A stretch of DNA of 24,025 nt, from positions 1-24,025 of the forward strand of contig JBBRLI010000034.1 of assembly GCA_038231455.1 (NCBI GenBank). The letters are read 5' to 3'. The stretch's first letter is position 1. Each line of letters opens with the position of its first letter. Below, one piece after another: positions 2 to 17,449 of this stretch. Position numbers and translations under genes: made by a program. Under the pieces are notes generated by a model. That model searched no databases. It was given only the letters and a program-made list of their open reading frames with translations, and had not been told where the DNA came from. Origin of the DNA: Vulcanimicrobiales bacterium. GTDB taxonomy: Bacteria; Vulcanimicrobiota; Vulcanimicrobiia; Vulcanimicrobiales; Vulcanimicrobiaceae.

Positions 2-160
2 AAAATTCGTCGGCGCGTGGTCCGCAGTTACGAGGGCAGGCGCGAGCGCGGGGCGACCACGCGCAACCGCGTGCCGCTCGGCGTCAAGAAAGTCGGCGAC
101 CGGCTTGTGCCCTCCGAGGATGCTTGGCTCGTGCGCGAGATTAGTACGTCGAGACGGTAA
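2..160 (+). pseudogene. 3' end of a large serine recombinase-like ORF, apparently truncated (5' part outside window)
   Basis: Frame 2 reads KIRRRVVRSYEGRRERGATTRNRVPLGVKKVGDRLVPSEDAWLVREI-STSRR*, matching the LSR alphaE-helix/linker pattern (I..R....G.....P.G.....L.P.E...+V+EI); it stops where the recombinase domain would begin. Confidence 0.6.
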
Positions 161-611
161 CCGCGGGCGAGCCGACGCCGCCCGTGCACGTAATCCCGTT
201 GACCGCGATTGCGTCGAACTTGAAGACTTGCCCGACCGTCGTCGTCGTCGACGTGATTCCGAGGATCGTTCCCGAGCCGGTCGATGCGTTGTCGAAACAC
301 GTCTCGGAGATCGTTCCCGCCGTCGTTACCGTCAGCTGCACCAGACGACCCGGCACGGCTTTGACGACCGTGGGGCCCGCGGTAGCTGCTGCGATCGCGA
401 ACGTCGACGAACCGCCGGTCGTGTCGAGCAGCACACGAACGAAGTCGCACGACACGTAGCCCGGCAACGTCGTCGAGGGTGCAGTTGCGGTCGTCTGCCG
501 GATGCAGATGCCCGTTGGATCGGCGAGCGCCTCGCGACCGAGGAAGCTCGCGGTGAAGAGGAAGCCCGCGATTGCCGCGAGTGCGACTGTCGCAAGCGTC
601 TTGCGGATCAT
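141..611 (-). CDS. Exported beta-rich phage protein (156 aa), signal peptide, 4 Cys
   Basis: ATG at 611 right after the upstream stop; MIRKTLATVALAAIAGFLFTASFLGREALA|D signal peptide; Thr/Gly-rich beta-strand pattern (TVVKAVPGRL...FDNAS...NGIT...VTVS). Confidence 0.8.
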   Translation of the reverse strand: MIRKTLATVALAAIAGFLFTASFLGREALADPTGICIRQTTATAPSTTLPGYVSCDFVRVLLDTTGGSSTFAIAAATAGPTVVKAVPGRLVQLTVTTAGTISETCFDNASTGSGTILGITSTTTTVGQVFKFDAIAVNGITCTGGVGSPAVTVSTY

Positions 612-612
612 G

Positions 613-822
613 CTAGACGGTCGGCTTCGGCGCAAGCGCCGCCGCTAACGATTGCGGCTGATCGAGCGGCTGGATCGTGATTGAGAGCTGCACGTGCTTC
701 CCGAAAAGATACGTGCGGATCGGCGGAACTGCGACGGTTAGCCCGCTCTGGAATTGCGCGGAGAAGCCCTCGATTGCGCCGAGGATCTGTGAGCCCAGCG
801 TGAGGATCGCGAAGAAATTCAT
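613..822 (-). CDS. Small hypothetical protein in lysis region (69 aa)
   Basis: Fills the gap between holin and the next gene; AGGGG upstream of ATG; hydrophobic N-terminus. Confidence 0.75.
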   Translation of the reverse strand: MNFFAILTLGSQILGAIEGFSAQFQSGLTVAVPPIRTYLFGKHVQLSITIQPLDQPQSLAAALAPKPTV

Positions 823-1193: not shown

Positions 1194-1225
1194 ACGGTAT
1201 CACGCGTTCTGCGGCACCACGGCCC
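1194..1225 (-). promoter_or_regulatory. Putative late promoter GGGCCG-N20-TACCGT, 6 nt before holin ATG (leaderless)
   Basis: Same two boxes and 20-nt spacing as at 10282, 17418 and 23923. Confidence 0.65.
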
Positions 1226-1688: not shown

Positions 1689-2116
1689 TTGACCGGTCCT
1701 ATCAAGTGGAGAGTCGTGGCGATCGTTATCGCGACTTGAGCAAGAACGGCGCTGACGCCGACCCCGACCAGCGCGAACATTTTCACGCGATCTGACCACA
1801 GCGTCTTTACGATCAGCAGCGTGCCTTCAGTGGGTTTGCCGTCTTCCGTGACGGTGCCGCGTAGCCAACCGCGCACCTCGCCGAGGTCCGTCTTGATGGT
1901 ATCCACGGAGTCTTTCACGTTGCCGATCGTCGCTATGGCTTGAACGTGAGAAGCCGACAATTTAGCAAGGGACCTAGCGACTTGAGAGAGAGCCTCTTGC
2001 GTTGCGTAGCGCGTGCGCTCAGCGCTGTAATGACGGCCAGCCGCTTCGATCGGTGTCTCTTCGGCAGAGCGTTCAAGGTGCTCGAGGAAATCGTCGGCTT
2101 CATTGTCCATTCCCAT
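1685..2116 (-). CDS. Membrane-anchored coiled-coil protein upstream of endolysin (lysis-associated candidate)
   Basis: Coiled-coil middle, C-terminal TM (MFALVGVGVSAVLAQVAITIA); translationally coupled to endolysin. Confidence 0.7.
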   Translation of the reverse strand: MGMDNEADDFLEHLERSAEETPIEAAGRHYSAERTRYATQEALSQVARSLAKLSASHVQAIATIGNVKDSVDTIKTDLGEVRGWLRGTVTEDGKPTEGTLLIVKTLWSDRVKMFALVGVGVSAVLAQVAITIATTLHLIGPVK

Positions 2117-2138: not shown

Positions 2139-4595
2139 TCAACGAAGGTGTGCGCCAAGCGTGCCGCCCAAGAGTGCCGAGAGAAGGTCCTCGGGCTTGT
2201 ACTCGCCGACGCCGAGCGCGCCGAGTGCGTCTTGGCCCAAGTTTAGAGGCAAGTAGCCCGCGGTTTGTCCCGCAAGGAAGCCGGAGCGCATACGCCCGTC
2301 TTGGTCGCGATGCGGCAGCAACGGCTGGCCGTATGTGAAATAGTCTTCCATCGTTTTTGATTTAAAATCGCGCGTGAAAGGGTCATATTTCTGCTGCGGT
2401 GCGCCCGCGTGAAATATTCCGGTTAGAAGCGCTTTCAGCGGATCGGCAGTCATCGCGCGCGCGTACTTCTGTGGCTGATCAATCCCGCCCAGCACGTCGG
2501 AGGTCGGCGTCGAGATGGCCAGCTTTTTCGGATTGCCGTCTGGGTTCGTGCCGATTTGCACTTCGCCGTTCGTACTGAGCCCCTGAGTTGCGCGGTCGGT
2601 GGCAAGGAACCGCTGCGGATTGCGTTTGAGGCTGCTGCCGATCGCCGCCGGGATGCGCGAGCGGAACGTCGCGAACGGCGCGATGTTCGAGAGCGCCTCG
2701 GTCGCCTTCGAGCGATGGCCATAGTCGACCATCTCGCGCATCGTCTCAGCCGCCGCCGCATCGGGATCCATGCCGCGCGCGATCTTGCGCTTGAGAACGG
2801 CCTGCTTCGCCGCGTCGTCGATCGCCCACGTCAGCTTATTGAGGCCCTTGGTGGCCGCACCGACGGGCCCGCCGATGACCGGGAGCTTCGCGAGGGAGTC
2901 GGCGATAGGATTCTTGCGATCCTCAAACGGCGTCACGACACCGCCTTCGATCGCGTCACGTAGGGAGTCGTACCGTTCACGCGGACCCATCCGAGCAAGT
3001 TGCTGCCCGCGTCCGAGCGCTTCGCCCGCGGCTCCGATGCCTTCGCTTTTCTGCGCGAGGTCGGGCACGTTGACGAGCCCGTGCTTCATGCCGAGCGTCG
3101 TCACCGTATTCTTCGGAATATTCACGACCTGTTTCCAACGGTCGGCACCGACCTCTCGCCAGTTACGCTCGTCGCCCGTCGCGCGCGTCGTGCGGTTGAA
3201 GAGTTCCTCAATCGCGGAGAGGTCGCTGCTTTGCCCCTTGGTCTTGAGCGGCACGCCGAGTTCGTCGCGCAAGCGTCCGGCGGTACCCTGGCGTGCAGCA
3301 TTGCGGATCGCGCCGCGGAACGCCTCATCGAGCGCCGCGATCTCTTCTGGCTTTTCGCCAACCTCGAACGCATCTCGTCGGATCGCGTTCGGTGCAAACG
3401 GGCGCAGCAAGTTGTACTCGCCAGCGGGCTTGTCTTTGGCGACTTCCGCAGCTGCGCGAGGTCCTGGCAGATAGTTCGCACGCACGTTGCCAGCACCGAG
3501 GATGCCCTGGTGCTTCGGCGCCGCGAAGTCTTTGAGCGACTCGGGCAGTTCGTACTGACGATCGACACGTCCGAGCAGCTTGCGCGCGCCCGGCTCTTTC
3601 TTGATCGGCACGCCACCGTCTTGGAGCAGCTCGCCCGCAAGATTGGAGAGATAGTCGCCGCGATCTTTCGCGCTTCCCGCGATCAGTTCGTCGATGTTGC
3701 CCGCGGGAGGCGGAGCAATGCGCTCCGGCGTCTTCATGTTGGCCGCGAGCTTGCCGCCGCCGTATGCGAGCTTGCGCCGAGCCGTTTCATCGCCTTGAAG
3801 CGCGGCCATGTCGTTCCGCAGCTTCTGCCCCTCGTCGACCGCTGCCGCGACGTGCGGGGCAACGATGAGGCGGCCGGACACGGGATCGGTCATCTGCCGC
3901 TCGCCGTTGAGGATCTGATACACGGTCCGCTTGTCTTCGTGCGCGAGCGGTGCGATGTGCTGGTCAAAGCGTTCTTGCAGGCGGCGCGCGGCTTCTTCTT
4001 CTTTTGCCCCCTGCCGATTTTCGGCGGCGAGTGCGCGATTGTACTTGGACTCGCCAAGATCGCGCTTTGCGCTTCCGCCGTACGTGAAGAAATCGCCGAG
4101 GCCGTGTGCGATCTTGGTGACGTCTTTGCTTAGTTCCGGCGCGACCTTCTTGGCGACTTCGCCGACGAGCTTTCCGCCGGCACCGAGTGCTTTGCCGCCA
4201 TACTTAATCGCCGATGCGCCGAGGAGCGACATCGGATCGGTTACGGTGTCGACCGCGAAGTCATCGAGCCCGCCGCGGAAGCCGCGCGCCTGCGCGCGCT
4301 CGGCATCGCCTGGAAGCCCGAGCTTCTTGCGCACGGCCGCGCGATCACGATCTTGCTGATCGGCCCCCGCGTGATGCATGAACGTGCGCAGCGGATCGTC
4401 ACCAGCAATCGCTGCCTGCACGGTCTGTCGCGGGCGGTCGACGATGTCCATGACCTTCGGCATCCCCATGCGGTCAAGGAACCCGCCGACGGCGTGCGTC
4501 GCGCCCTCCCACGGGTTCTGTGGCGTCGTTTGCGCTGCCGTGCCCCAGGAGTTGCCGCTGGTGGGTGCAGCCGCGCCCCAGACGTTGTCGGCCAC
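2139..4595 (-). CDS. Large internal virion/DNA ejection protein (818 aa)
   Basis: Last and largest of the Ala/Gly-rich genes after the tail genes, positional analogue of P22 gp16/T7 gp16; GTG overlaps upstream TAG. Confidence 0.72.
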   Translation of the reverse strand: MADNVWGAAAPTSGNSWGTAAQTTPQNPWEGATHAVGGFLDRMGMPKVMDIVDRPRQTVQAAIAGDDPLRTFMHHAGADQQDRDRAAVRKKLGLPGDAERAQARGFRGGLDDFAVDTVTDPMSLLGASAIKYGGKALGAGGKLVGEVAKKVAPELSKDVTKIAHGLGDFFTYGGSAKRDLGESKYNRALAAENRQGAKEEEAARRLQERFDQHIAPLAHEDKRTVYQILNGERQMTDPVSGRLIVAPHVAAAVDEGQKLRNDMAALQGDETARRKLAYGGGKLAANMKTPERIAPPPAGNIDELIAGSAKDRGDYLSNLAGELLQDGGVPIKKEPGARKLLGRVDRQYELPESLKDFAAPKHQGILGAGNVRANYLPGPRAAAEVAKDKPAGEYNLLRPFAPNAIRRDAFEVGEKPEEIAALDEAFRGAIRNAARQGTAGRLRDELGVPLKTKGQSSDLSAIEELFNRTTRATGDERNWREVGADRWKQVVNIPKNTVTTLGMKHGLVNVPDLAQKSEGIGAAGEALGRGQQLARMGPRERYDSLRDAIEGGVVTPFEDRKNPIADSLAKLPVIGGPVGAATKGLNKLTWAIDDAAKQAVLKRKIARGMDPDAAAAETMREMVDYGHRSKATEALSNIAPFATFRSRIPAAIGSSLKRNPQRFLATDRATQGLSTNGEVQIGTNPDGNPKKLAISTPTSDVLGGIDQPQKYARAMTADPLKALLTGIFHAGAPQQKYDPFTRDFKSKTMEDYFTYGQPLLPHRDQDGRMRSGFLAGQTAGYLPLNLGQDALGALGVGEYKPEDLLSALLGGTLGAHLR

Positions 4596-5689
4596 TAGTT
4601 ACCGGAGAGCGCGCGCTGAATCGCTGCCTTCGATGCGTCGTCGATCGGCGCACCTGGCAAGTCCTGGAGCGCCTGCTGCACGGTTTGGCCTTGGTCGACG
4701 AGGACGTGCCGGATCATCTCGCGCAGCTTCGGCGGCAGCGAGCTATACGATTTGCCTTTCGCGACGTCGGTGAACGCGCGCTCCGCGTCAGTGTGTTTGT
4801 GGCGCTCGTCGGCCGCGGTGCCGCGCGCGTCGGAGCGATCGCCGCTGCGCTGGCCGCCCTCGGTTACAAACGACGATTCGCGCGAGAGAATGAGCGTCTT
4901 GAGGTTCTTGTAATCGCGCTCGGAGTTGGGATTGCCGCGATGCCCTTTGTGCCCAGCCTCGAGCGCGAGCATCGCCTGCGCGCGCGTCGGCGGGTTATTC
5001 GTCGAGTAGAGCATCTCGTAGAACTGCATGCCTTCGGGCGAGAGCGAGCCCATTGCGTCCTCGTAGGCTTGCGTTCCGCGCTCGCTCGCCGATGCGCGCG
5101 GGCCAGCGGGCGCTTGATAATCGTCGGCTCCGGAAGACAGGCGACGCTGCGATTCGGCCGTCGATGCTTGTGTCGACGCGATTCCCGCCTGCGCTTGCGC
5201 GTGCTGGTCGGCGGCCATCTGCGGCGCGGCGTTTGCCGTAACCGTGGCGGTCGTCGCTTGTGCCTGCGCTTGCTGCAGCGCAGCGGCGGCTTCTTTCACG
5301 CCGTACTTTTTCTTGATTTCAAGATCAATAGCCGCACCCTGGCGCTGTAACTTCGCAAGATCAGCCGCGCCTTTTTGCGCGTCGATCTGCCCCTGCTGAA
5401 TCTTGACTTGCAACTGCTGCTGCTGAAGCATGACCGGGCGTAGTTTCTCGTTGTACTCCTCGGTCGCCGCGGTGATCTTACGCGTCTGCTCTTGGGTTTG
5501 CAGGTCGCTCATCGTGCGCGCGTGTGTGTCGTCGAAGGAGCGGTCGGCTTCCATGTCGCGGCGCGAGTCGCGAGACTTCTGATAGTCGCGCGCTTGATTT
5601 TCGAGGTCGTTCGTGCGTTTCTTGTCGGTGAACGCGCCAACGGCTTCGGACGCAGCGGTGAGCGGGTCGTAGGTTTGAATTGTCGGCAT
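4595..5689 (-). CDS. Internal virion/ejection protein, coiled-coil (364 aa)
   Basis: Gln/Ala-rich helical sequence, position in ejection cluster, abuts both neighbours. Confidence 0.7.
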   Translation of the reverse strand: MPTIQTYDPLTAASEAVGAFTDKKRTNDLENQARDYQKSRDSRRDMEADRSFDDTHARTMSDLQTQEQTRKITAATEEYNEKLRPVMLQQQQLQVKIQQGQIDAQKGAADLAKLQRQGAAIDLEIKKKYGVKEAAAALQQAQAQATTATVTANAAPQMAADQHAQAQAGIASTQASTAESQRRLSSGADDYQAPAGPRASASERGTQAYEDAMGSLSPEGMQFYEMLYSTNNPPTRAQAMLALEAGHKGHRGNPNSERDYKNLKTLILSRESSFVTEGGQRSGDRSDARGTAADERHKHTDAERAFTDVAKGKSYSSLPPKLREMIRHVLVDQGQTVQQALQDLPGAPIDDASKAAIQRALSGN

Positions 5690-7240
5690 TTAGCTTGACC
5701 CGAATGATCCGCCGGGAACAGGGTCTCCCGGCTGGAATCCGCCGCTGCCGACGCCCGAGCTTCCGCCCTTTCCGAACGCGCCCGCGAGCCCGGAATAGTT
5801 CACGGGCGACGGTTGCTGAAAGACGGGTTGGAACGCGTTTGTCGCGCCCTGCTGGCCCTGGCCGATGATGTTGCCCTGGAGGCCGAGCTTCGTGAGGTAG
5901 TCTTGCTGCTGCAGTTGCGCGAGGAACTGCTGCATCTGCTGGCTATTGGACGTGTCGAACATGCCCGCTTTGATCATATTCGCGATGTCAAATTGCTGAT
6001 TTTGGTTCTGCGAGGTCGCGTTAAACTGCCCGCCCTGCATCGCCGCGTTCTGGTTCGCGCCCTGCGCCGTGAGATCGTTCGAAGCGTTGAACTGCTGCGT
6101 CTGCTGATTTCGGTTGGCGTTTGCCATCAAAGCAGCAAACGAGTTGCCCGCGTTGAACTGCGCGTTCTGCTGGCCGCGATCGGCGTTTCCTGTCGCGGCC
6201 GCGAAGCCCAAGTTCGAATTAAATTTACTAAAATCGTTCGCAGCGCCCTGGTTTTGCGATGCCGCGTTGAAGCCGAGCCCAGCGTTGAATTCGCTATTCC
6301 GGCTTTTTGCGTTCTGGTTGGCGATCGACGCCTGCAGCGAGTTTGCCGCGTTCGCTTCGCTTGCGCTAAGGGCCGAGTCGCGATTTCCGGTCGCCGTCGA
6401 CGTGTCGAGATTCGCATTGAACATCGAGTTCGTATTCTGCGCGCCCTGATTGGCAAGGTCGCGCTGCTGCTGCATCTGCAACCCCTGCATGATGTACTGC
6501 GACATCTGTGACATCGCTTGCTCTTGCTGCTGGTTTCCAAGCGCGCCAATCGCGCCCGTCGTCGATCCGCCAACGATGCCGGCATTCGCGAGGCCCTCGG
6601 TCAGCGCGCGGTTTTGCTGATCGAACTGCGGCAAAAGCCCCTTCATAATCGATTGTTGAATATCGGATGTCGACGCGCCCTGTCCAAGCAACGATGCATT
6701 CGCGTTGGTCGCGGTCACCGATCCGGCGCCTACGCCGCTTGCTCCAACGTCACCGGAATACGTTGCCTGCGGCGCGACGATGTCGGCCGCGCGCTGTGCG
6801 GGGTTGAGGTTGATGTTCCCGCCGCCTTGCGATTGCGGCGCATTGACGTCGCCGCCGCCAGCGATCTGCTGGGCGTTGATCTGCGGCACGCCTTGCACGG
6901 TTGCCGTCGTGGTCGTCGGGAGGCCATTCGGGAAAAGCTGATTCAGATACGTGGGCTGCAGCGTTTGATTCGGATTTTGGCCTGGCGGATCGACGTTGGC
7001 CACATCAGGCTGCGGCGCGGGATGGGCGCTTGAGTTCGGGCCGGATGCGCCTGCGCCGGTGTTGTATTGCGCGTACTGCGGGTTCGCTTTGAACCACGCG
7101 TCTTGCGCCTGCTGCTCGGTCGTGTACGTGCCCTGCGCTGCGCCGACGGCTTGAGACGGATCGCCGGAGACGCCGTTGTAGCCGTACTGGTGCGTGTTCG
7201 GGTCTTGGCTATACGACGGAGCGAACGCGGGCTGCGCCAT
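5690..7240 (-). CDS. DNA pilot/ejection protein with hendecad Asn/Gln repeats (516 aa)
   Basis: Q/N/A/G-rich with 14 consecutive 11-aa units; position in ejection cluster. Confidence 0.75.
   Translation of the reverse strand: MAQPAFAPSYSQDPNTHQYGYNGVSGDPSQAVGAAQGTYTTEQQAQDAWFKANPQYAQYNTGAGASGPNSSAHPAPQPDVANVDPPGQNPNQTLQPTYLNQLFPNGLPTTTTATVQGVPQINAQQIAGGGDVNAPQSQGGGNINLNPAQRAADIVAPQATYSGDVGASGVGAGSVTATNANASLLGQGASTSDIQQSIMKGLLPQFDQQNRALTEGLANAGIVGGSTTGAIGALGNQQQEQAMSQMSQYIMQGLQMQQQRDLANQGAQNTNSMFNANLDTSTATGNRDSALSASEANAANSLQASIANQNAKSRNSEFNAGLGFNAASQNQGAANDFSKFNSNLGFAAATGNADRGQQNAQFNAGNSFAALMANANRNQQTQQFNASNDLTAQGANQNAAMQGGQFNATSQNQNQQFDIANMIKAGMFDTSNSQQMQQFLAQLQQQDYLTKLGLQGNIIGQGQQGATNAFQPVFQQPSPVNYSGLAGAFGKGGSSGVGSGGFQPGDPVPGGSFGSS
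5993..6454 (-). repeat. 14 x 11-aa (33-nt) degenerate protein repeat, xN-x9, mostly alternating (A/G/Q)N and FN
   Basis: ANQGAQNTNSM/FNANLDTSTAT/GNRDSALSASE/ANAANSLQASI/ANQNAKSRNSE/FNAGLGFNAAS/QNQGAANDFSK/FNSNLGFAAAT/GNADRGQQNAQ/FNAGNSFAALM/ANANRNQQTQQ/FNASNDLTAQG/ANQNAAMQGGQ/FNATSQNQNQQ. Confidence 0.9.
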
Positions 7241-7861
7241 TTAGTAAGGCATCCCGGGATTGCCGAAATGCGGGGGTTGTCCGCCAAGCCCGCCCTGCTG
7301 CGGCTGTTGCGCCATGAGGCGCCGCATAATCTGCCCGGCCATGCCTACCGGAGGCTGACCTTGCGGTGGTTGCATTTGAGGCGGAGCAAGCGGCAGCGGA
7401 AGGCTCTCGTTCTGCGATAACTGCGCCGTGCGCGGCGGCATACCGACCTCAGACGCGTGCCCGCTTGCCATCGGCTGACGAAGACCGCCGCCGCCGCCCT
7501 GGCCCTGCTGGAACTGCTGGATCATCTGCTGCAAGCCGCCTTGCTGGCCGCCAGGGCGACCGCCACCAGCGCCGCCCATAATCGACGACGTGAACGGCGA
7601 GACGCCCGCTGAGGTGTTTCCAAGCGCGCCCGCGCCGTAGTTTGCGGTCGGGCCTTGCACGTGCTGGCCGGCAAACGGGGACGGCGAATTCTTTATGAGC
7701 GCTTGGATCTGTTGCATCGCCTGATCACGCGCGGCCTTGGCGTTTCCGACCGCCGCGGTCTGCTGATTCTCGTTATTCTTTAGGGCAGACTTCTGCTGTA
7801 CGTTATTTCCGATCATGCTCGCGCCAGCGAGGACGAGCGGAATTGCGACCGCGGGCGGCAC
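7241..7861 (-). CDS. Small ejection protein (P22 gp7/T7 gp14 positional analogue, 206 aa)
   Basis: Hydrophobic N-terminus (PPAVAIPLVLAGASMIG), then coiled-coil and a G/Q/P-rich tail; follows the GNAT-like gene. Confidence 0.68.
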   Translation of the reverse strand: MPPAVAIPLVLAGASMIGNNVQQKSALKNNENQQTAAVGNAKAARDQAMQQIQALIKNSPSPFAGQHVQGPTANYGAGALGNTSAGVSPFTSSIMGGAGGGRPGGQQGGLQQMIQQFQQGQGGGGGLRQPMASGHASEVGMPPRTAQLSQNESLPLPLAPPQMQPPQGQPPVGMAGQIMRRLMAQQPQQGGLGGQPPHFGNPGMPY

Positions 7862-7874
7862 TAGCGGGTAGCTT

Positions 7875-8288
7875 TCACTGAGGGCATCGGAACCTCCGCA
7901 AACAGACTATCCCAACGGGCGTAAAGCCTCGTCCCAAGACGGCGCGGAGCTGCTGCTCATTTGCCGGGTCGACCGTGCCAACGATGTCGACCTCGTCGTG
8001 ATCTGCCGCGGCAAAGATAGATGCGTACATCGCCTTGATCGCACGCGTGCCGTCAGCGCCTTTGACGCGATAGAAGTCCAGCACGACGCGCTGGTTGAGG
8101 CCCTCGGCCTCGTAGGTCGAGAACACGCCGATGACGCGCTCTCCGCGTCGCGCTACCCACCACACGGCTTCTTGCGGGCGGCGTTGAACCGGCTGCCCTC
8201 GCGCTTCGAAGTACGCGTGACGGAGCGCCTCGATCTGCGGCCACTCAAGGACCGTCGCGCGATCGACGACGATCGGGCGCTCCGTCAC
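7875..8288 (-). CDS. GNAT-fold acetyltransferase-like phage protein
   Basis: GNAT-like pattern (WWVARRGERVIGVF...GTRAIKAM...N..LRAVLGRGF); typical podovirus slot before ejection genes; GTG at 8288 overlaps upstream TGA. Confidence 0.65.
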   Translation of the reverse strand: MTERPIVVDRATVLEWPQIEALRHAYFEARGQPVQRRPQEAVWWVARRGERVIGVFSTYEAEGLNQRVVLDFYRVKGADGTRAIKAMYASIFAAADHDEVDIVGTVDPANEQQLRAVLGRGFTPVGIVCLRRFRCPQ

Positions 8289-8560
8289 CAGAGCCAAAGC
8301 GCCGCGCCGAGGCTTTGCGCGCTCTCAAATTTCACGGTGGCCGTTGCGGGCGTCAACGCGGAGAAGCACACGCGCGACGGGTACTCATTCAGCGCGGTGC
8401 TGACAACTTCAACGTGGCGCAGATTCACGCGCAGCGGGTGGCTAACGGCGACCGTGCCGCCAGCGGTAACCGGGGCCGTTAGGATGAAGACGTATCCGCC
8501 GAGATACGGGCCCGTGGTAAACGGCTTGCCTTGATCGCGCGCGAACGGCTGCTCGGTCAC
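8285..8560 (-). CDS. Small beta-rich tail-associated protein (91 aa)
   Basis: Coupled to neighbours; VAVSHPL motif and beta-strand pattern. Confidence 0.65.
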   Translation of the reverse strand: MTEQPFARDQGKPFTTGPYLGGYVFILTAPVTAGGTVAVSHPLRVNLRHVEVVSTALNEYPSRVCFSALTPATATVKFESAQSLGAALWLW

Positions 8561-8561
8561 C

Positions 8562-8750
8562 CTATGACGGACCTTGGTAGAGCCAGCGTGAGGCGGTCAC
8601 TTGCAAGGCGTCGTAGGCGGTTTTGAGTTGGCCCTGATCCTGCGGCGACGGCCCGCCAGCGGTAGCCGTATCGAGTTCGCGGTGGAGGTCGATGATCAAG
8701 GTCTGGATCGTTGTGAGGGCGGACACGAGGTTCTGGGTAGCAGTTGACAT
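8562..8750 (-). CDS. Small helical hypothetical protein (62 aa), possible fibre chaperone
   Basis: AGGAG 5 nt before ATG; fills the gap; amphipathic helical hairpin. Confidence 0.72.
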   Translation of the reverse strand: MSTATQNLVSALTTIQTLIIDLHRELDTATAGGPSPQDQGQLKTAYDALQVTASRWLYQGPS

Positions 8751-8758
8751 GTGTGCTC

Positions 8759-9448
8759 CTAGCGGAAGAGATAGAGGCCCGACGAGCCGATGAAGCCCGA
8801 CGAGGCTTGGGGCGCCGGGTAATCGGCGTAGGTTGTCGCATTTCCAAATGCGGTTGACGTGCTAACGCACGTCGATGATGCCGTGCTGGTCGCGGTGGCG
8901 TGCGCAAATCCAATCCCCGACACGCCAAAGAACGCGTCGTTAACCGCACCTCCGTTGGCCATCGTCAGACTTGAGAGCGTACCGTACGTGTTTGCTACGC
9001 AAATCTGGATATCGCCAGAGACGACGCCTGTAAGCGTTAGCGTCTGGGTAAAAACAGCGGACCCGCCGAACTGCGGCGTGTACGCGCCGGGAATCGCTAC
9101 CCCCGAAAGTTCATACATGCACGCTTCACTCGGCAGAGGCGTTCCCGTGAACGTGTACGTCGCTGTCGGCGATCCGCTCACCGTGTAGTCTTGAATTTGC
9201 GTGCCCTGCGCGCCGCCCGCCATAAGCGAGCGATACGTGAGAGATACTACGTTCGAGTCTCTAACGCCAACGCCGCCGCCAGGAACTCCGGTCTCCGTCA
9301 CGGTGACGATATTGCCGTTCGAAGGCGCAACCCCAAAGGACAGCGTTGTCGACGGAATGCCACAGATCTTTTGGACGATCGTAGGCGCTGCCATCGCCGG
9401 AGCGCCGCAAGCAATAAGGAAAACCGTAACAATAAGAGCGCGTATCAC
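8759..9448 (-). CDS. Exported beta-sandwich protein, candidate receptor-binding/fibre tip (229 aa)
   Basis: GTG at 9448 overlaps upstream TGA; signal peptide MIRALIVTVFLIACGAPAMA|A (also LIAC lipobox); 4 further Cys; T/G/S/V-rich. Confidence 0.72.
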   Translation of the reverse strand: MIRALIVTVFLIACGAPAMAAPTIVQKICGIPSTTLSFGVAPSNGNIVTVTETGVPGGGVGVRDSNVVSLTYRSLMAGGAQGTQIQDYTVSGSPTATYTFTGTPLPSEACMYELSGVAIPGAYTPQFGGSAVFTQTLTLTGVVSGDIQICVANTYGTLSSLTMANGGAVNDAFFGVSGIGFAHATATSTASSTCVSTSTAFGNATTYADYPAPQASSGFIGSSGLYLFR

Positions 9449-10275
9449 TGAGGCTGCTGCTGGCCTTCTGCCGTGAACCCGCATGATACGCCGGTTCCGG
9501 CCGTGGTTATGACCATGTGCAAGATGTGGCCGGCCGTCAGCGCGAAAGGCGTGCCGAGCGTGAACGTGCTTGTTGTCGCCGCCGATAGCGTGTAGGGCGA
9601 CCCGGTGATGTCCGTGCCGTTGTCGTACACATGAAATACGGTCGCCGCATTATCTGCCGTTGCGCATGCGACGCGGATCTTCGTGATTGTGCCAGCCTGG
9701 TATCCGGGAACTTGCTGGTACGGGTAGACCGTTGTCGACGCGTTGCCGCCAGCGTTGAAGCCGAGCCCGATATTCAACAGCGTGAAATTAATCGCCGAGC
9801 ACGCCGACGTAAGCTGATTTGATGCGCCGATGCAAACGGGTGCGGATGCGGTGAGCGCCGGAAAGCGCGTCGTGCCGTCGCTCGCGACAAAGACCGCCTT
9901 CGTGCCGCCAGTCGTCAACGTCACATCAAAAATATCCGCCGTCTGCGAGGTCGTCCCGGAGATCGTGAGCGGGACTTGAGCGGGGGCGTTCGGGAAGAAC
10001 GTGTAGCCAAGCGCCGAGCCGAAGATCGCCGAGGTGCCCGACGTCGGGACGATCTGCGATGCGAAGATGCCAGCCGCGCCGATCTGCGAATTGTCGACGG
10101 TCGTCGCGCAGTTCCGAAGCGCCGTGTTGTTTGCGTTCGTCGTCGATGCGGTCAGCAACGAGACGCCATCCAAGAACACGAACGGGAGCGGGACGCATGA
10201 CGCGCGCGCCGCAACCGGCGCGAAGGCGAACGCCGCGCACGCTACGGCGGCAAGGAGCAGTCGGCGAATCAGCAT
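9445..10275 (-). CDS. Tail fibre/tailspike-like protein with N-terminal signal peptide (276 aa)
   Basis: Directly after nozzle gene; MLIRRLLLAAVACAAFAFAPVAARA|S signal, then P.vF.DG...TAS..NAN..AL resembling phage fibre attachment segments; 6 Cys in mature part. Confidence 0.72.
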   Translation of the reverse strand: MLIRRLLLAAVACAAFAFAPVAARASCVPLPFVFLDGVSLLTASTTNANNTALRNCATTVDNSQIGAAGIFASQIVPTSGTSAIFGSALGYTFFPNAPAQVPLTISGTTSQTADIFDVTLTTGGTKAVFVASDGTTRFPALTASAPVCIGASNQLTSACSAINFTLLNIGLGFNAGGNASTTVYPYQQVPGYQAGTITKIRVACATADNAATVFHVYDNGTDITGSPYTLSAATTSTFTLGTPFALTAGHILHMVITTAGTGVSCGFTAEGQQQPQ

Positions 10276-10281
10276 GCGGCA

Positions 10282-10313
10282 AGCATACCTGCGCCGCCAA
10301 TGGCGCTCGGCCC
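10282..10313 (-). promoter_or_regulatory. Putative late promoter GGGCCG-N20-TATGCT, 6 nt before ATG 10275 (leaderless)
   Basis: Fills the 40-nt intergenic gap; same spacing as three other copies. Confidence 0.7.
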
Positions 10314-10315
10314 GA

Positions 10316-12037
10316 CTACGGGGAAGGCTCGTCGACGATCACTTCGATCGTGAACGCGAGCAGGTTGAACGGGTTGGTCGAGGACTCCAGCACGCCCGGC
10401 TGCACGACCGTTCCCTTCGCGTCCTGCTGCGGATAGGTCTTCGCAAACGACGTGACGATCTGCGAGCCGTTTCCGTACCGGGTGCCGTCGCCGTAGACCG
10501 CGCCGCCGCCGTACGGAACGCCCGCACCGGGTTGCCCGATCGTCACGGTCGGCGCAATCGACGTGGCAAGGTCGAGCACAACGTATCCCGTGATCGCGTC
10601 GGTGTAGATCGGCGACGTCACCGAAAGCGGTGCGGGGAAAGCGCCGACGACGTAGAGCGCCTGCACATCCTTCGGCCAGATCGGCTTGTCGAGGAAGAAC
10701 GCCTTCGCGCGGATCTCCAGCGCCGTTGGTAGCCCGAAGTCGCCATAGACGCCGGTGTCGTGCTGCGCGATCGTATCCGCTGTTGAGAGGCCCCAGTAGA
10801 ACGGTGCCGTCACGTCGCCCGGGCCACGACACTCAACACCCCACGCGAGCGGCATTCCGGTCGGCCAACGGCTCCACGCGCCACCTTGCGGCGAGCCGAA
10901 CGTGTATCCGCCGTTTGCTTGCGTGTCGAACACAACGATCGAGGCGTTCTGACCGCCGCCGGTGTTGTCGTACGCCGCCCAGTATTGACCGCTGCGGCGC
11001 ACGCCGGCGACGGTTCCCTTCCCGCGCAGTTCGCTTGGAAACGCCGACTGCGACGTGTTGCCGTAGACGCTCGGAATCTCATCGGGGATCGGCAGCACTG
11101 CTTGCCCGTCCGTCGCGTAGAAGCGGTCGCCGCCGAAGAAAATGACGTACCCCTCGAAGCCTTGGATCGATCGCGGTGACGTGCATCCGGTCGCCGTCGA
11201 GATGACCGACCACTGATATTGATACGTTCCGTACGTGCCCGTGTTGACGCCAACGATCACGGCCGAGGTGTAGAACACGATCAGGTACGGGCCGACCTGC
11301 GCGAGCCCCGTGACCGCGCCTTCCTTGCCGTCGCGACCAGCGGGGAAGTATGCGGTGTACGGCGTGCCGCCCGAGTCGAGAAGCCCGTAGCCGTTGAACC
11401 GCTCGGGCCGCAGCGCATCGCTGATATACACCGCCGTCGGTTCCGTGGGCTCGCCCGCGTAGACGAGATGCTCGCGCCACGTGGTCACGTAGTGCGGCGT
11501 GATCGGAGCGCCGCCGCGACCCTTCGGAAGCGTGAGCGAGCCGCCGATCGCGGCCGTCTGCACCGGCGTAAAGTTCACGCCATCGTACAACTGCGGGATG
11601 TGCACGCCGTCGCAAACGACCATCGCCGTCGCCGCCCCCGTGCTCATATCGGGATCGTAGACCTGCGCGAAGTTTGCGTACGACGACGCCGAAAGCCCCG
11701 CGCCAACCGACGTGAACGCGCCGGTCACATCGTTGCCTTTGTATATCTGCGTGCCGCTATGGACAAGCAGTTGCGGCGCCGAACCGACCGGGTAAAAGCG
11801 CGTGCCGGCAAGCGACGGCGTTCCCGTGCCGACCGCGCCCGAACCGCTGCCGTAAGCAATATTGCCCGGCCGCTTCGACACCAGGCCGTCGCGGTTGAAG
11901 ACGACGTTATCCGCAACGTAGAGCTGCCGATCGCTGAGAAGATGCGGGAACGTGCGCGTCGACCAACCCTGATCGAGCCGATCGATGACGACGTAAAACG
12001 ACTTATCCGTTCCCTCGACCGGGAAAATGCCGCTCAA
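10316..12037 (-). CDS. Tail nozzle / DNA stabilisation protein (P22 gp10/T7 gp12-like, 573 aa)
   Basis: N-terminal ADNVVF...G.VSKRPG motif, beta-propeller-like sequence with GC.SPRSI; follows adaptor; TTG start. Confidence 0.8.
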   Translation of the reverse strand: MSGIFPVEGTDKSFYVVIDRLDQGWSTRTFPHLLSDRQLYVADNVVFNRDGLVSKRPGNIAYGSGSGAVGTGTPSLAGTRFYPVGSAPQLLVHSGTQIYKGNDVTGAFTSVGAGLSASSYANFAQVYDPDMSTGAATAMVVCDGVHIPQLYDGVNFTPVQTAAIGGSLTLPKGRGGAPITPHYVTTWREHLVYAGEPTEPTAVYISDALRPERFNGYGLLDSGGTPYTAYFPAGRDGKEGAVTGLAQVGPYLIVFYTSAVIVGVNTGTYGTYQYQWSVISTATGCTSPRSIQGFEGYVIFFGGDRFYATDGQAVLPIPDEIPSVYGNTSQSAFPSELRGKGTVAGVRRSGQYWAAYDNTGGGQNASIVVFDTQANGGYTFGSPQGGAWSRWPTGMPLAWGVECRGPGDVTAPFYWGLSTADTIAQHDTGVYGDFGLPTALEIRAKAFFLDKPIWPKDVQALYVVGAFPAPLSVTSPIYTDAITGYVVLDLATSIAPTVTIGQPGAGVPYGGGAVYGDGTRYGNGSQIVTSFAKTYPQQDAKGTVVQPGVLESSTNPFNLLAFTIEVIVDEPSP

Positions 12038-12040
12038 GAG

Positions 12041-12841
12041 TTAGAACCCTTCGCGCGCGAGCGGCGTGCCCCACGTGTCGACGAGGCGCATCGGATCGCC
12101 GCCGTCTTCGGTTGAGCCCTCGTCCATCGCTGCGAGCACGTACGCTTCCCACTTCTGCGCTGCGGCTTGCACTTGCGCGTTTTTGTTCGCCGCATCGCCC
12201 GCGTTCATCACGCAATACTCGACGAGCGCCATGTGGAATTGCTGTGGAAAGAGTGGAACGTCAGTCGGGTTCACGAGCTGCCCGCCGTTTGCGGCGCTCA
12301 CGCCGATCGCCGAGGCGTTCGGATCGGGGACGCCGGTGATGGTGATGATGTCGCCAGCCGTCGCCGTGCCAGGTGCAACTTCGAGCTGCGTCTTCCGGTG
12401 GATGCGCGCGGCGTAGAGCACGCGCGGACCGAACCACGAAAGCCGCCGCGTGTAGCCGCCCGTGACTTGCGCGAATCGATCGCCCGAGATCAGGTCGACG
12501 ATGTACTCGTAGCCCGCGTTCGTGCCGCCCGTCTGCGTCGTGTACGTGAGTTCGAGAATGCGCATGAGCGCCGGATTCGCAGCGTCAAGCGGCGTGTTTG
12601 GAAGCGGCGAGATCGGATACGCGATCGCGTTCAACGTCGTAAGAAACTGCGTCTTGACGATCGCGATCTTCGACTCGAGCGTTCGCGACAGAAACTCGCT
12701 GTAGCCCTGGTTGAGCAGCTGCTGCACAAGCGACGGCGGGTCCTGATCGGTCGGACCGTTACCCGGCGCATTGCCAAAAGAGACCCCGCGTTGACGGAGC
12801 CTCCAAAGAGCCAGGTTCTGCAAGAATTGGAAGTTCGCCAC
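12041..12841 (-). CDS. Head-tail adaptor protein (266 aa)
   Basis: LLNQGYSEF and DVPLFPQQFHMALVEY adaptor-type motifs; GGGAG SD before GTG; precedes nozzle. Confidence 0.78.
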   Translation of the reverse strand: MANFQFLQNLALWRLRQRGVSFGNAPGNGPTDQDPPSLVQQLLNQGYSEFLSRTLESKIAIVKTQFLTTLNAIAYPISPLPNTPLDAANPALMRILELTYTTQTGGTNAGYEYIVDLISGDRFAQVTGGYTRRLSWFGPRVLYAARIHRKTQLEVAPGTATAGDIITITGVPDPNASAIGVSAANGGQLVNPTDVPLFPQQFHMALVEYCVMNAGDAANKNAQVQAAAQKWEAYVLAAMDEGSTEDGGDPMRLVDTWGTPLAREGF

Positions 12842-12855
12842 TTAGGGCGCTCCCG

Positions 12856-13719
12856 TCAGCGCCGCGCCTTGCGCGGTAGCGTCAGCGTCGAGTGATCTTC
12901 CGCGACCGGCTCGTCGTCGACTGCGATCGTGCGCATGTCGGCTTCGCCGTCAAGCGATGCCTCGGCACGCGATTCGATCGTCGAAACGACTTCGCCATCC
13001 GCACCGTAAAGCGGCATATCTTCCATCGTGTACTCGGCAATGCGCTGCTGGAGCAATTCGGTCTCGGCTGCGAGCACTTCGGGGTCGTGACCTTTGCGGC
13101 GCACGCGACGTGCGCGCGTGGCTTTGTCGTACCGTTCGTACACGGCAACCGGTTCGCTAACGATCTTGCCGCGACCGTCGATACACTCGACAACAAAATC
13201 GGGCAGGCCGATCGGGCCACCGATCACGCGCACGGGTGCGTTCTTGCCGGGAGCCGAGGCTTCGGTCTCGAGTTCAAATCCACCGCAGCGTTCGATCACC
13301 TCGATTGCTTCGGGTGCGCGCGGATCAAATACGTTGCCGACAAAATGCAGGCCCGCCTCGATTGGCACAAACATCGATTCGCCCGGCTGGAGCCAGGTGT
13401 TCTTGTCGTCCGTTGCGCCTTCGGGGAATCGCTCGCCGTCGAACGTGCCGTTCCAGACCTTGACGTTCCCAAGCCGCGCGCGGTTCGTGACACGCCACTG
13501 CTTCGGTGCGCCCTTGAACATACGCTCGACCGGCTGCGTGCGCAGCGCGGTGGAACGCGCGATCATGTTCTCGCCCATTGGAGCGACGGATACGGGATCG
13601 ACGAGAGCGGCCGTGGGACCGTCCGCCGTCTGAACCGTCGAGAAAACGCGGCCGGATTGGGAACCGCCGAACGACGCGCCCGGCGTACGCATCGCTCCCG
13701 GTCGTGCACCGAACGCCAT
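12856..13719 (-). CDS. Phage hypothetical protein (287 aa)
   Basis: TAATG coupling to upstream gene; globular core with acidic C-terminus. Confidence 0.75.
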   Translation of the reverse strand: MAFGARPGAMRTPGASFGGSQSGRVFSTVQTADGPTAALVDPVSVAPMGENMIARSTALRTQPVERMFKGAPKQWRVTNRARLGNVKVWNGTFDGERFPEGATDDKNTWLQPGESMFVPIEAGLHFVGNVFDPRAPEAIEVIERCGGFELETEASAPGKNAPVRVIGGPIGLPDFVVECIDGRGKIVSEPVAVYERYDKATRARRVRRKGHDPEVLAAETELLQQRIAEYTMEDMPLYGADGEVVSTIESRAEASLDGEADMRTIAVDDEPVAEDHSTLTLPRKARR

Positions 13720-14279
13720 TACGTGATCTGCACGAAGCAGTTGCAGAGCGTTGAGGTGGCCGAAGCTGCCGCGATGATCTGCGTTGCTTGCGCGATGAAC
13801 GTCCTGGTCGCGAGCAAAACGCCGATGTTGAGACCGGATGCGCGAGCACCCGGCACGGCGTCCGTCACAACGGTCGACGCGATGAGGTTGCCGCCAACGA
13901 GGCCAGCCGCACCAGCCGCAGGTGACTGCGCCGAGACGACGCCGCGGCCGAACATGAGCACGCGGATCGTATCGCCGGGGACCGGCAAGAGACCCGGGTT
14001 CTGATCGAACGGTTGGAAGATGCCGACGCAGACCAAGCTCGCGCCAGCCTTGGCGTTCGTGCCGAGCACGACTTTGCCGCCCGAGCGCACCACAGCCGGG
14101 GAGAGCGCCGTGCCCGAATAGTACGAGTTGAATTCGGCCGCGTCGGTGACGTCAACGTACACCGGTTTGCCAACCGTGAGATTTCCGGCGACGTCGTTGT
14201 AGACGAATTCGTAGAATTGCGAATCGCCGAAAGCCGTTTGCGCCGAGACGCCGTCAATACCGCGAGGTGAATAACCCAT
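13719..14279 (-). CDS. Capsid decoration/cement-like protein (186 aa)
   Basis: Likely start MGYSPRG at 14279 just after the upstream stop; G..V.V...VGI...GD...V...G beta-tulip-like pattern; downstream of MCP. Confidence 0.68.
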   Translation of the reverse strand: MGYSPRGIDGVSAQTAFGDSQFYEFVYNDVAGNLTVGKPVYVDVTDAAEFNSYYSGTALSPAVVRSGGKVVLGTNAKAGASLVCVGIFQPFDQNPGLLPVPGDTIRVLMFGRGVVSAQSPAAGAAGLVGGNLIASTVVTDAVPGARASGLNIGVLLATRTFIAQATQIIAAASATSTLCNCFVQIT

Positions 14280-14281
14280 GT

Positions 14282-14521
14282 CTAACGCTGTCCCTTCCGC
14301 ATGAACTTCTCTTGGATATTCGGCGCTTTGCCGTACAGATCGCCACTTACGCCAGCGCTCTTTTCGAGCGGGTCGCCCGGCGCACCGTAGCGCTGGATGA
14401 ATGTTCCCTCGCGTCCGCCCGAAAGCGAATCCGCACAGTGAACGAGGCCGCTCTCCATCTTGTTGAGGACGCGAACGCCTTCGATCGGGTCTGCGAGTTT
14501 GTGTCCGCCTTTGCGAGCCAT
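14282..14521 (-). CDS. Small basic hypothetical protein (79 aa)
   Basis: AGGAG SD before ATG; fills the gap. Confidence 0.72.
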   Translation of the reverse strand: MARKGGHKLADPIEGVRVLNKMESGLVHCADSLSGGREGTFIQRYGAPGDPLEKSAGVSGDLYGKAPNIQEKFMRKGQR

Positions 14522-14530
14522 GCTGTTCTC

Positions 14531-14761
14531 CTAGGTGAGGATTGCGAGGTTGTTTGAGCTGATGCGATCGAGATCGTCGCACAGAGCGAGGATCGGGTTG
14601 GGGAGCGCGTAAGCCGACGGGTTTACCGCAATCGTATACGTTGCCGTACCGGTTGCGGGGAGGCCCTCGTTGTCGCCGCCGACGATCTGCCACGGAACCG
14701 TGACAACGATGTTTCCGGTAGCGACGATGTCGGCAAGCCGATCAGATGCGGGCACAGGCAT
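14531..14761 (-). CDS. Small hypothetical protein after MCP (76 aa, MPVPASD...)
   Basis: ATG overlaps MCP stop (TAATG). Confidence 0.7.
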   Translation of the reverse strand: MPVPASDRLADIVATGNIVVTVPWQIVGGDNEGLPATGTATYTIAVNPSAYALPNPILALCDDLDRISSNNLAILT

Positions 14762-15819
14762 TACCCACCCGAGACCCACGTGCCAAATTGTTTGTTCGGC
14801 CGGTTGCAGACCAGCGCGCCGGCAAAGAAGATGTCCATGAAGTACTGATCGCCGTACGGATCGCGCATCCACTCGCCGAGTGTGAAGAAGCGTTCCGGGT
14901 GAACGACAAAGTCGAACCAGTCGAGATTCAGGCCGTACCAGAATCCGCCCGATCCCGAGCCCGTGCCCGGCTTGAAGACGCCCGTCGGGATCTTCTCGTC
15001 GATCAGAACCGGTGCGTCGTTGAACGCAAGATCGTTGCCGCCGGTCGTCTTGAGGCCGATTGCCTCGATGCGACGCGGGTCGATGACGTAGCGCTCGGGC
15101 GACTGCAGCGAGCCCCAGTACGAACCGTAGATCGCTTCGGTCGTGAGGTTGAGACGCACGCGCGAACTCTGTCCGCGGTTCGCGGCAAGATACAGCGTTT
15201 GGATCGAGTTGATGAACGACGCGCCGAGCGTGTTGTTGTAGTTCACCTTCGCCTTGAGCGACGGGTACGTCGTGCGCGAGAGCGATCCGACCGTGTTCGA
15301 GATCGTGCCGTCGTCGACGAGAACCGCGAGGCCCTCGATCGAGGCCGGGTTCCCGACCGTTCCGTCCGAGCGCGTGCCGTACGGATTGTTCGTGTAGAAG
15401 TCACCGGCGATGAGGTCGGGGAGCGTGAGCGATGCAACGTCGACTCGCTCTTGAACGAGGTCGACGATCGCTTCGTCTGCGCCGCTGTTGCGGAGAATTT
15501 CTTCGCCGAGGATCAGCACCGCGTCATGCGCGAGCTTCCAGTCCCAGCCGCCTGCGATGAGCCCTTCGAACTTCGCGAGCTTCCAGCCCCCAGCACCGGT
15601 GTACCACCCAGCGTTTGGCGATTTGCCGATATTGAACTGGCGCTGGATGAAGAGACCGCCGCGCTGCTCTTTGAGATGCCCGGTCGTTTTCATCACCGCA
15701 AAAAGCGGCGAGGTGTCGAAGACTTGATCGTAGACCTTATCTGCCTCGACCGCCGCAAACGTAACGGCGTTCAGAGCGTCGGCGTACGAGTTGACGGTTG
15801 CTGATGCGTAAGCGGCCAT
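14761..15819 (-). CDS. Major capsid protein (HK97 fold, 352 aa)
   Basis: GGAGG SD; DQVF..SPLF...GG..I, IEGL..LV, FN..PV..D, LVCNRP motifs; size and position after scaffold. Confidence 0.88.
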   Translation of the reverse strand: MAAYASATVNSYADALNAVTFAAVEADKVYDQVFDTSPLFAVMKTTGHLKEQRGGLFIQRQFNIGKSPNAGWYTGAGGWKLAKFEGLIAGGWDWKLAHDAVLILGEEILRNSGADEAIVDLVQERVDVASLTLPDLIAGDFYTNNPYGTRSDGTVGNPASIEGLAVLVDDGTISNTVGSLSRTTYPSLKAKVNYNNTLGASFINSIQTLYLAANRGQSSRVRLNLTTEAIYGSYWGSLQSPERYVIDPRRIEAIGLKTTGGNDLAFNDAPVLIDEKIPTGVFKPGTGSGSGGFWYGLNLDWFDFVVHPERFFTLGEWMRDPYGDQYFMDIFFAGALVCNRPNKQFGTWVSGG

Positions 15820-17005: not shown

Positions 17006-17410
17006 CTACGCTCCCGGAGGTGGGGTCGGCGGCGCTCCCGGGGAGGGCGACGCTGATGCAGCCGGTGGCATTCCTGGTGCTCCCATCGGCGCCGGTGGCG
17101 GCGGCGGTGGAGGCATCACGATGTTCGGGACCGGCGCTCCGCCCGAACCCGTCGCTTGCGCTGACTCGGTGATTGCCTTGTCAGCGAACTCGACGATGCG
17201 TTGCAGCTCGACACGCCGCATCTGGTCTTGCTCGTCGTGCAGCACCTTCGATGCGATCGAATAGAGCTGTCCGTAGAGCATGGTTTGACCGTCTGCGGGG
17301 ATGTGTTCGGGCTGCGATGGGGAGGGCGTCTGGTTGGGCGAAGCCGCCCCGAGCACTGCCGAAGCGATGCTTGAGGAAACGGGCTTGCCGAAAACCGTTG
17401 TGCCTGCCAT
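17006..17410 (-). CDS. Hypothetical protein with Pro-rich C-terminus (134 aa)
   Basis: ATG 7 nt after TACGTT; helical core then PPPPPPP low-complexity tail; between portal and scaffold. Confidence 0.72.
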   Translation of the reverse strand: MAGTTVFGKPVSSSIASAVLGAASPNQTPSPSQPEHIPADGQTMLYGQLYSIASKVLHDEQDQMRRVELQRIVEFADKAITESAQATGSGGAPVPNIVMPPPPPPPAPMGAPGMPPAASASPSPGAPPTPPPGA

Positions 17411-17417
17411 CGAGGGC

Positions 17418-17449
17418 AACGTAGCACCGCGCGCGAGCGGCTACGGCCC
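17418..17449 (-). promoter_or_regulatory. Putative late promoter GGGCCG-N20-TACGTT (TGn-extended), 7 nt before ATG 17410
   Basis: Intergenic, upstream of the scaffold-capsid operon; same spacing as other copies. Confidence 0.7.

Follow-up and report, generated by a model that had tools for sequence, protein, structure and literature searches.

The window analysed here is an entire contig (C34, 24,025 bases) of a 3.7-Mb metagenome-assembled genome (MAG). Its plausible genes all lie on the minus strand and together form a phage late module, in which an SU10-type adaptor gene is followed by a nozzle-like gene, then by P0001, a supported candidate for the tail fibre, and by P0002, which overlaps it. 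A first-pass annotation of the same DNA had noticed that both proteins begin with an export signal and carry cysteines in plausible pairs, and had proposed that receptor-binding parts of this phage are exported, folded with disulfides outside the cytoplasm and joined to particles during or after lysis. We followed up these proposals by sequence comparison and structure prediction. The features of the window are collected in Table 1.

Table 1. Features of the 24,025-base window, by position and strand
Feature	Position	Strand	Basis or remark
P0001 putative signal peptide, residues 1–25, MLIRRLLLAAVACAAFAFAPVAARA	10201..10275	-	translation; detector score 5.95; leader position conserved in the family
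P0001 conserved N-terminal fibre domain, residues 26–135, with Cys27 and Cys56	9871..10200	-	
P0001 C-terminal part, residues 136–276 and stop: short shaft, predicted beta-sandwich tip, Cys148/160 and Cys204/265	9445..9870	-	
P0002 putative signal peptide, MIRALIVTVFLIACGAPAMA	9389..9448	-	translation; detector; AxA-type site at the equal column in 3/3 homologues
Mature P0002, two predicted tandem jelly-roll beta-sandwich domains, 4 Cys	8759..9388	-	
Third leader-bearing protein, alternative start ATG 611, 4 mature Cys	141..635	-	detector 5.26; end of the late module
Gap between nozzle-like gene and P0001, 40 nt	10276-10315	-	no terminator, repeated motif or sigma-70-like site found
Nozzle-like tail protein, 573 aa, without leader	10316-12037	-	directly after the adaptor; phrog_3287 'virion structural protein', E 9.7e-10
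SU10-type adaptor	12041-12841	-	Pfam PF24175 SU10_adaptor, E 3.9e-9, 37.7 bits, cut-off 27
Portal	17829-19859	-	weak P22/SU10 portal matches, under Pfam cut-offs
Scaffold-like and capsid genes		-	late module of the window
Large terminase	20208-22157	-	
Four long Gln/Asn/Gly-rich or large proteins	7241-7861, 5690-7240, 4595-5689, 2139-4595	-	called internal proteins
SLT-domain protein	1200-1799	-	PF01464, E 7.6e-15

The P0001 and P0002 genes and their products

The P0001 open reading frame (ORF) runs from the ATG at 10275 to position 9445 on the minus strand, and its product begins with MLIRRLLLAAVACAAFAFAPVAARA followed by SCVPLP. The leader consists of a basic n-region (MLIRR), then a hydrophobic h-region and A-R-A at −3/−1 (ARA before S), and the mature part contains six cysteines (C27, C56, C148, C160, C204 and C265). 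Leaders were scored with a crude rule of our own (basic n-region, uncharged hydrophobic stretch, small residues at −3/−1) rather than with SignalP. Scores above 5 were obtained for three of the 29 minus-strand ORFs in the window, namely P0001, P0002 and the ORF at 141–635, and another ORF (17006–17419) reached 2.5. Translation and the detector together bore out the signal peptide and the six mature cysteines described earlier for this gene.

P0002 can start at the GTG at 9448, which overlaps the TGA of P0001 as GTGA, and it ends at 8759 (minus strand). Read from this GTG, the product is MIRALIVTVFLIACGAPAMA followed by APTIV, with four cysteines in the mature part; its leader starts with MIR and has the cleavage-like site AMA before A. 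The longest ORF, from the ATG at 9484, extends the n-region and changes nothing else. All three homologues (P0016, P0017 and P0018) have a leader, with the AxA-type site at one alignment column in the four proteins including P0002, and P0017 starts with MIRAL, resembling the GTG start. Translation, the detector and the homologues (3/3) therefore agree with the earlier description of a coupled second gene with a signal peptide and four cysteines. Within this family the four cysteines are lost pairwise. The public gene call (P0015, 211 aa, starting with MAAPTIV) begins past the leader and is probably too short.

The AlphaFold2 (AF2) model of P0002, with a predicted template-modelling score (pTM) of 0.69, shows two tandem jelly-roll domains. 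Comparison with the predicted viral structures of BFVD resulted in 32 matches at E ≤ 0.001 (TMq up to 0.60), which include uncharacterised phage proteins and 'minor tail protein' entries of Mycobacterium and Gordonia phages (actinobacteriophages). Only generic jelly-roll matches were found among PDB folds (Foldseek TM ≤ 0.34), and VIA gave middling Z scores (≤ 8.2) to TNF-like lectins and the heads of phage receptor-binding proteins. P0002 is probably, as judged from these models, an accessory and glycan-binding tail protein.

The first-pass annotation had defended the P0001 start codon by a promoter motif 6 nt upstream of the ATG at 10275, and had ascribed a transcript of their own to the fibre genes. 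Neither proposal found support. A sigma-70-type scan of positions 8400–10700 returned no sites, the 12-mer upstream of the ATG had no other copy in the window at fewer than two mismatches, and none of the 20 direct-repeat families listed (of at least 60 found) overlapped 10276–10315. The start codon is accepted because the homologues keep the leader at the matching alignment position (90/157 members of the survey described below), and not because of a promoter; this conservation excludes a start-codon artefact, which the annotation had considered unlikely in view of the promoter motif.

The identification of P0001 as a tail fibre is supported by synteny, modular architecture, a chaperone domain in relatives and a predicted homotrimer. 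Of ten related viral contigs, eight have a nozzle homologue adjoining the fibre gene (tblastn), the homologue lying directly upstream in seven of them and directly downstream in L007. Throughout the family the N-terminal domain (N-domain) is conserved and the C-terminal modules are variable and exchangeable. Peptidase_S74, which serves tail fibres and endosialidases as an intramolecular chaperone, was found in 22 of the 150 members scanned. The AF2 monomer of P0001 was poor, with a predicted local distance difference test (pLDDT) score of 61 at which the N-domain fold and the Cys–Cys distances are unreadable; residues 190–270, a beta-sandwich, reached block-mean values of 72–86. Foldseek matched this C-terminal beta-sandwich to parts of phage tail fibres and to BclA/C1q-like and carbohydrate-binding module (CBM) domains.

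A trimer model, which had been suggested as a check, gave a confident predicted homotrimer. For three copies of mature P0001 (residues 26–276) the interface score ipSAE (interaction prediction score from aligned errors) was 0.79 (runs 0.78, 0.79 and 0.83) versus 0.00 for the best control, with a partner pLDDT of at least 89 and a contact agreement of at least 96%. In the calibration, which was made with two copies and holds only roughly for the trimer, 20 of 30 proteins solved as pairs attained the mark for this score, as did 1 of 23 solved as single chains. Pfam and PHROG scans gave no match for P0001, P0002 or most of the neighbouring genes, and hence no described fibre family for the two proteins. 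Similarly, the N-domain profile had no match among PDB chains, and Protein Atlas returned unnamed viral clusters only, its Mtd_N lead (0.83) being too weak to use.

Leaders and paired cysteines in three families

A word-indexed search detected 12 homologues of P0001. Eight of these have a leader followed by the conserved N-domain, three begin at the N-domain itself, and P0004 has a leader, a differing N-terminal region and a C-terminal module as in P0001. The N-domain consensus reads P.VF.NG...A.TTNANN...C...VDNTQIG.AGIFASQI.P. Ten IMG/VR contigs (21–42 kb, of which at most 16 kb each was inspected) carry this domain. To keep the leader from biasing the search, a profile (A3) was built from the mature N-domain alone, as found in the window and the ten loci; of 1.84 billion cluster representatives it retrieved 512 at E ≤ 0.001. 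A pattern search of genome contigs with a small family alignment confirmed no relatives among 76 pattern matches. The family survey comprised 157 proteins: the window protein, 11 from the word-indexed search (P0004 was left out) and 145 new ones from the best 150 of the 512 A3 hits. A leader was called when a 9-residue window with a mean Kyte-Doolittle hydropathy of at least 2.0 preceded profile position 1.

By this rule 90 of the 157 members have a leader and 67 are leaderless. The leader is 19–30 residues long in 85 of the 90, its n-region is net positive in 87, and AxA stands at −3/−1 in 67, the remainder being mostly AxS, VxA or SxA. Both N-domain cysteines are present in 81/90 members with a leader versus 1/67 leaderless members (Fisher p = 5e-33, kinship ignored), and no member of the leader class has just one of the two positions. 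The leaderless exception, P0120, has a truncated 7-residue leader stub, which looks like a clipped leader. The mature cysteine count is even in 85/90 leader forms; the median is 6 cysteines in leader forms versus 1 in leaderless forms, and the density 1.9% versus 0.34%. The question of whether homologues in the same gene slot keep the leader and the cysteine pairs, raised in the first-pass annotation, has a divided answer: many family members do, but the leaderless forms include some that occupy the fibre slot (L002, L008 and L010). In all seven leaderless loci that were read, the in-frame upstream sequence has no hydrophobic stretch, which indicates that these forms are truly leaderless.

The difference is not limited to the N-domain, because the C-terminal modules that leader and leaderless forms have in common (154 cross-type BLAST pairs at E<1e-8) show it too. 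Over 191 shared-module alignments cysteine made up 1.35% of the leader member and 0.49% of its leaderless partner, and 13 of 256 leader-form cysteines stood opposite a cysteine in the partner. On a FastTree tree of the N-domain, from which the cysteine columns had been removed, 24 changes of leader state and 19 changes of cysteine state are needed.

Similar results were obtained for the third leader-bearing ORF of the window, at 141–635, a small protein located after lysis-like genes. Five of its nine homologues have a leader, and four of those five have the core cysteine pair; the other four are leaderless and none of them has both cysteines. The leaderless homologue in contig L004 (15551–15883) has no cysteine at all. 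Whether P0001, P0002 and the 141–635 protein are relatives of each other was also considered, and no detectable relation was found (BLAST E ≥ 0.075, hhalign probability 4.6%). By these sequence comparisons a leader accompanies paired cysteines in three unrelated families of this phage lineage, and leaderless homologues are without them.

The N-domain was also found in 7 of 300 other genomes from the order of the MAG, all seven in one family (7/295 sampled). Two of these host-family loci have a leader, the cysteine pair and 7–8 cysteines, four are leaderless with no cysteine, and one weak partial match was left unclassed. As both forms were found within a single host family, the taxon of the host does not account for the difference. 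Genes for Omp85/BamA and DsbA-family proteins are present in the MAG, from which the putative host appears to be diderm with an oxidising periplasm.

Two of the related contigs contain further cysteine-rich proteins. In L010, which has a leaderless, cysteine-free fibre, several downstream proteins (8691–14912) contain 10–22 cysteines each, and two of them have signal-peptide-like starts, one of the two being lipoprotein-like. L007 belongs to a leader-type phage and encodes, after its nozzle gene, a leaderless protein of 607 aa with 16 cysteines (10718–12541), whose start was judged by eye to be tailspike-like (pectate-lyase-type). In some members of the lineage a cytoplasmic spike may thus coexist with an exported fibre.

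Export, disulfide folding and completion of the virion

Cleaved Sec signal peptides follow the von Heijne −3/−1 rule. P0001 and P0002 both show the features of a Sec signal peptide processed by signal peptidase I, that is, a positive n-region, a hydrophobic h-region and an AxA-type site. A conserved basic n-region and hydrophobic core with AxA directly before a domain that is elsewhere N-terminal look like a cleaved Sec signal peptide. Two other routes that had been left open are disfavoured. The motif RRLLL in P0001 had left Tat export open; a twin arginine occurs in 12/90 leaders and in none of the P0002 family. The motif LIAC in P0002 had left lipidation open; it is absent from P0016, P0017 and P0018, which keep the AxA-type site, and a lipobox-like motif was seen in 3/90 fibre leaders.

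The bacterial cytoplasm is reducing, and DsbA oxidises proteins of the periplasm. Since the cytoplasm is reducing, even numbers of cysteines found only together with a leader are what is expected of periplasmic proteins oxidised by DsbA. The proposal of export and disulfide folding outside the cytoplasm is thereby strongly supported through the link between leaders and paired cysteines in three families; from these sequence patterns we infer the actual export, cleavage and disulfides.

The reading that we favour, with a probability only slightly better than even (about 0.55), is that the fibres leave the cytoplasm through Sec, become oxidised in the periplasm and are loaded on fibreless particles at lysis. 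The phage would belong to an uncultured podovirus lineage that has an SU10-type adaptor and a nozzle-like protein, and P0001 would be its trimeric tail fibre (receptor-binding protein). The precursors of P0001 and P0002 would pass the inner membrane unfolded and be cleaved after AxA by signal peptidase I. Folding and trimerisation would follow in the periplasm, with the host Dsb system closing the cysteine pairs. Capsid, portal, adaptor and nozzle, which are leaderless and nearly free of cysteine (the counts in the window are portal 0, scaffold 0, capsid 1, adaptor 1, nozzle-like protein 3 and four internal proteins 0), would meanwhile assemble in the cytoplasm as fibreless particles. As the particle proteins are leaderless, the two pools could meet only when the inner membrane is breached in lysis, and the conserved N-terminal domain would then dock on the tail. 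In this respect the fibre would resemble those of T7 (gp17) and SU10, which dock on the adaptor or nozzle via a conserved N-terminal domain. We infer this joining during or after lysis purely from the arrangement of the two pools.

T4 particles that lack fibres and P22 heads that lack tailspikes can be made complete in vitro, and in lysis by holin, endolysin and spanin the outer membrane is the last to go, with a brief confined phase in which cytoplasm and periplasm mix. Completion in vitro and the late loss of the outer membrane make a late joining of fibres physically plausible. The SLT-domain protein of the window would be without a leader when read from an internal ATG, which loosely fits a holin that makes large lesions.

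By gene context the closest known system is the ordinary podovirus fibre (T7 gp17, SU10). Similarities are a gene that adjoins the adaptor and nozzle-like genes, a conserved N-domain with swappable C-terminal modules, a homotrimer (predicted here) and the S74 chaperone domains in relatives of P0001. Unlike these fibres, which assemble in the cytoplasm, P0001 has a cleavable-looking Sec leader and paired cysteines, and it has no sequence match to a Pfam or PHROG fibre family or to a PDB chain. The pIII protein of filamentous phages is a receptor binder with a Sec signal peptide and periplasmic disulfides, as predicted for P0001. An Inovirus particle, however, is assembled entirely at the membrane and then extruded, whereas here a capsid with terminase, portal and nozzle-like protein must form in the cytoplasm. 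In the Acidianus two-tailed virus, too, part of virion morphogenesis takes place outside the cytoplasm, as the tails grow outside the host, but this virus is archaeal and non-caudoviral and uses another mechanism, in which no fibre is exported by Sec. P0001 would be a tail fibre that has an export route; should the joining prove real, this assembly step would itself be of a new kind.

Several observations weigh against loading of exported fibres at lysis. Fibres that are loaded only at that moment risk dilution. S74 domains occur mostly on leaderless forms (15/18, versus 2 on clear leader forms). Nine of the 90 leader members have no N-domain cysteine pair, and five have an odd mature cysteine count. 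The tree yielded four supported independent contrasts; in about 3.8 of them cysteines changed in the direction of the leader, and in none against it, an underpowered comparison (median p 0.125). The survey covers the best 150 of the 512 family hits, and all leader calls rest on our crude rules and not on a trained predictor. The link to the host consists of metagenome binning and the N-domain in 7/295 family genomes. The fibre (P0001), its relatives P0010 and P0035 and the portal had no tblastn match in 50,697 phage records, which marks the lineage as uncultured. Finally, a literature search, with most subscription journals outside its coverage, returned no report of Sec-exported tailed-phage fibres or of loading at lysis.

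The main rival explanation, which we consider unlikely, is that the proteins are exported but do not belong to the virion. They would act in the envelope, in receptor masking or destruction, superinfection exclusion or the prevention of sticking to debris, and the particle would use another receptor-binding protein. In favour of this rival, the export signals are genuine, the 24-kb contig may be a partial genome, and the related contigs were inspected over at most 16 kb each. Phage T5 reportedly encodes an exported receptor blocker, Llp, beside its receptor-binding gene. Llp and Cor are envelope proteins encoded by the phage in such a position, but they are small lipoproteins, unlike the full fibre-type trimers predicted for the P0001 family with its rare lipobox-like leaders. 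The leader forms, moreover, share both the N-domain and the C-terminal modules with leaderless fibres of the same slot (L002, L008, L010). All five leader-type viral records have exactly one N-domain gene and no leaderless twin, and one of these records has direct terminal repeats. In the window no other fibre-like ORF is present between the nozzle-like gene and the internal proteins, and a periplasmic protein would need a further secretion step to reach the outer face of the outer membrane.

It is improbable that the hydrophobic N-terminus is neither translocated nor cleaved and serves as a membrane anchor or as a buried element of the trimer or tail, with cysteines that oxidise spontaneously after release or bind metal. 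Cleavage of P0001 is a prediction only, and in the monomer model residues 2–17 are helical, with block-mean pLDDT values of 83 and 75 for residues 1–20. An uncleaved anchor nevertheless leaves unexplained the positive n-regions of the leaders (87/90) and the AxA (67/90) placed right before a domain that is N-terminal in 67 relatives, and also the fact that in three families cysteines appear and disappear together with the leader.

By architecture the closest known system is a set of chromosomal genes of a predator, the mosaic adhesive trimer (MAT) fibres of Bdellovibrio bacteriovorus. These have a signal peptide, a conserved beta-rich N-domain of about 130 aa and a mosaic trimeric build, with S74 and non-S74 subfamilies and jelly-roll/TNF-like tips that contain disulfides (PMC10769870). 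The P0001 family has the signal peptide, the conserved N-domain and the mosaic trimeric fibre in common with them, a likeness of architecture; MAT fibres act on the cell, whereas P0001 lies in a phage late operon in the fibre slot. That P0001 fibres are displayed in a similar manner on infected or lysogenic cells, altering adhesion or catching hosts, is more improbable still: Bd2133 fibre domains are among the fold matches, but the gene is part of a late structural operon and stands between the nozzle-like gene and the genes of internal virion proteins, no anchoring or outer-membrane export partner is apparent, and the leaderless orthologues of the same slot cannot be surface-displayed.

If the fibres are indeed exported and loaded at lysis, several consequences would follow. 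Lysis would gate the completion of the virion, and the infectivity of the progeny would depend on host Sec and Dsb, which would represent new host factors and routes to resistance. Disulfide-stapled receptor-binding proteins would form a recognisable class. Textbook assembly of tailed phages is wholly cytoplasmic, and an assembly step outside the cytoplasm would be the first of its kind to be described for them. Natural matched pairs are available within the family: leader/Cys-paired versus leaderless/Cys-free fibres with the same domains, gene slot and host family. Gene callers may clip leaders, as with P0002, which may conceal exported phage proteins in databases, and the feature is probably under-reported. 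For a broader statement we would give even odds: that in a large, uncultured lineage of podoviruses the virions are completed outside the cytoplasm, with Sec-exported and Dsb-oxidised fibres docking at lysis, and that related phages within that host family have repeatedly changed between the periplasmic and the cytoplasmic route, gaining or losing the cysteine pairs each time.

Neighbouring genes of the late module

The nozzle label rests on the position of the gene, its phrog_3287 match and the profile of its family, which matches PDB chain 9nwi_Y (E 3.5e-8; 6 chains per entry) and, weakly, two PDB chains named nozzle (E 0.3). The sole tblastn match of the nozzle-like protein among the phage records was Vibrio phage CHOED (24% identity). 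The module also holds small genes and small membrane proteins, and the leader-bearing ORF at 141–635 is its final gene.

A GNAT-like protein of 140 aa is encoded inside the tail module (7875–8297, minus strand; weak PF13302 match, E 0.008, under the cut-off) and has a counterpart at the equivalent place in contig L004 (27% identity over 131 aa). Two of the proteins called internal, of 206 and 516 aa (5690–7861, minus strand), have an extreme Gln/Asn/Gly content and no cysteine; they match no family and occupy the position of podoviral internal or ejection proteins. If the first GTG is taken as the start, the SLT-domain ORF and the upstream gene (1685–2116) overlap by 115 nt; the more likely start is an internal ATG near 1688. 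The 143-aa protein encoded upstream has a single transmembrane segment, at its C-terminus, and so has the protein in the corresponding position of L004. Opposite the real genes, the plus strand of the window contains numerous long ORFs of up to 403 aa; these are Arg/Ala-rich, as expected for the antisense strand of high-GC genes, and are read as spurious.

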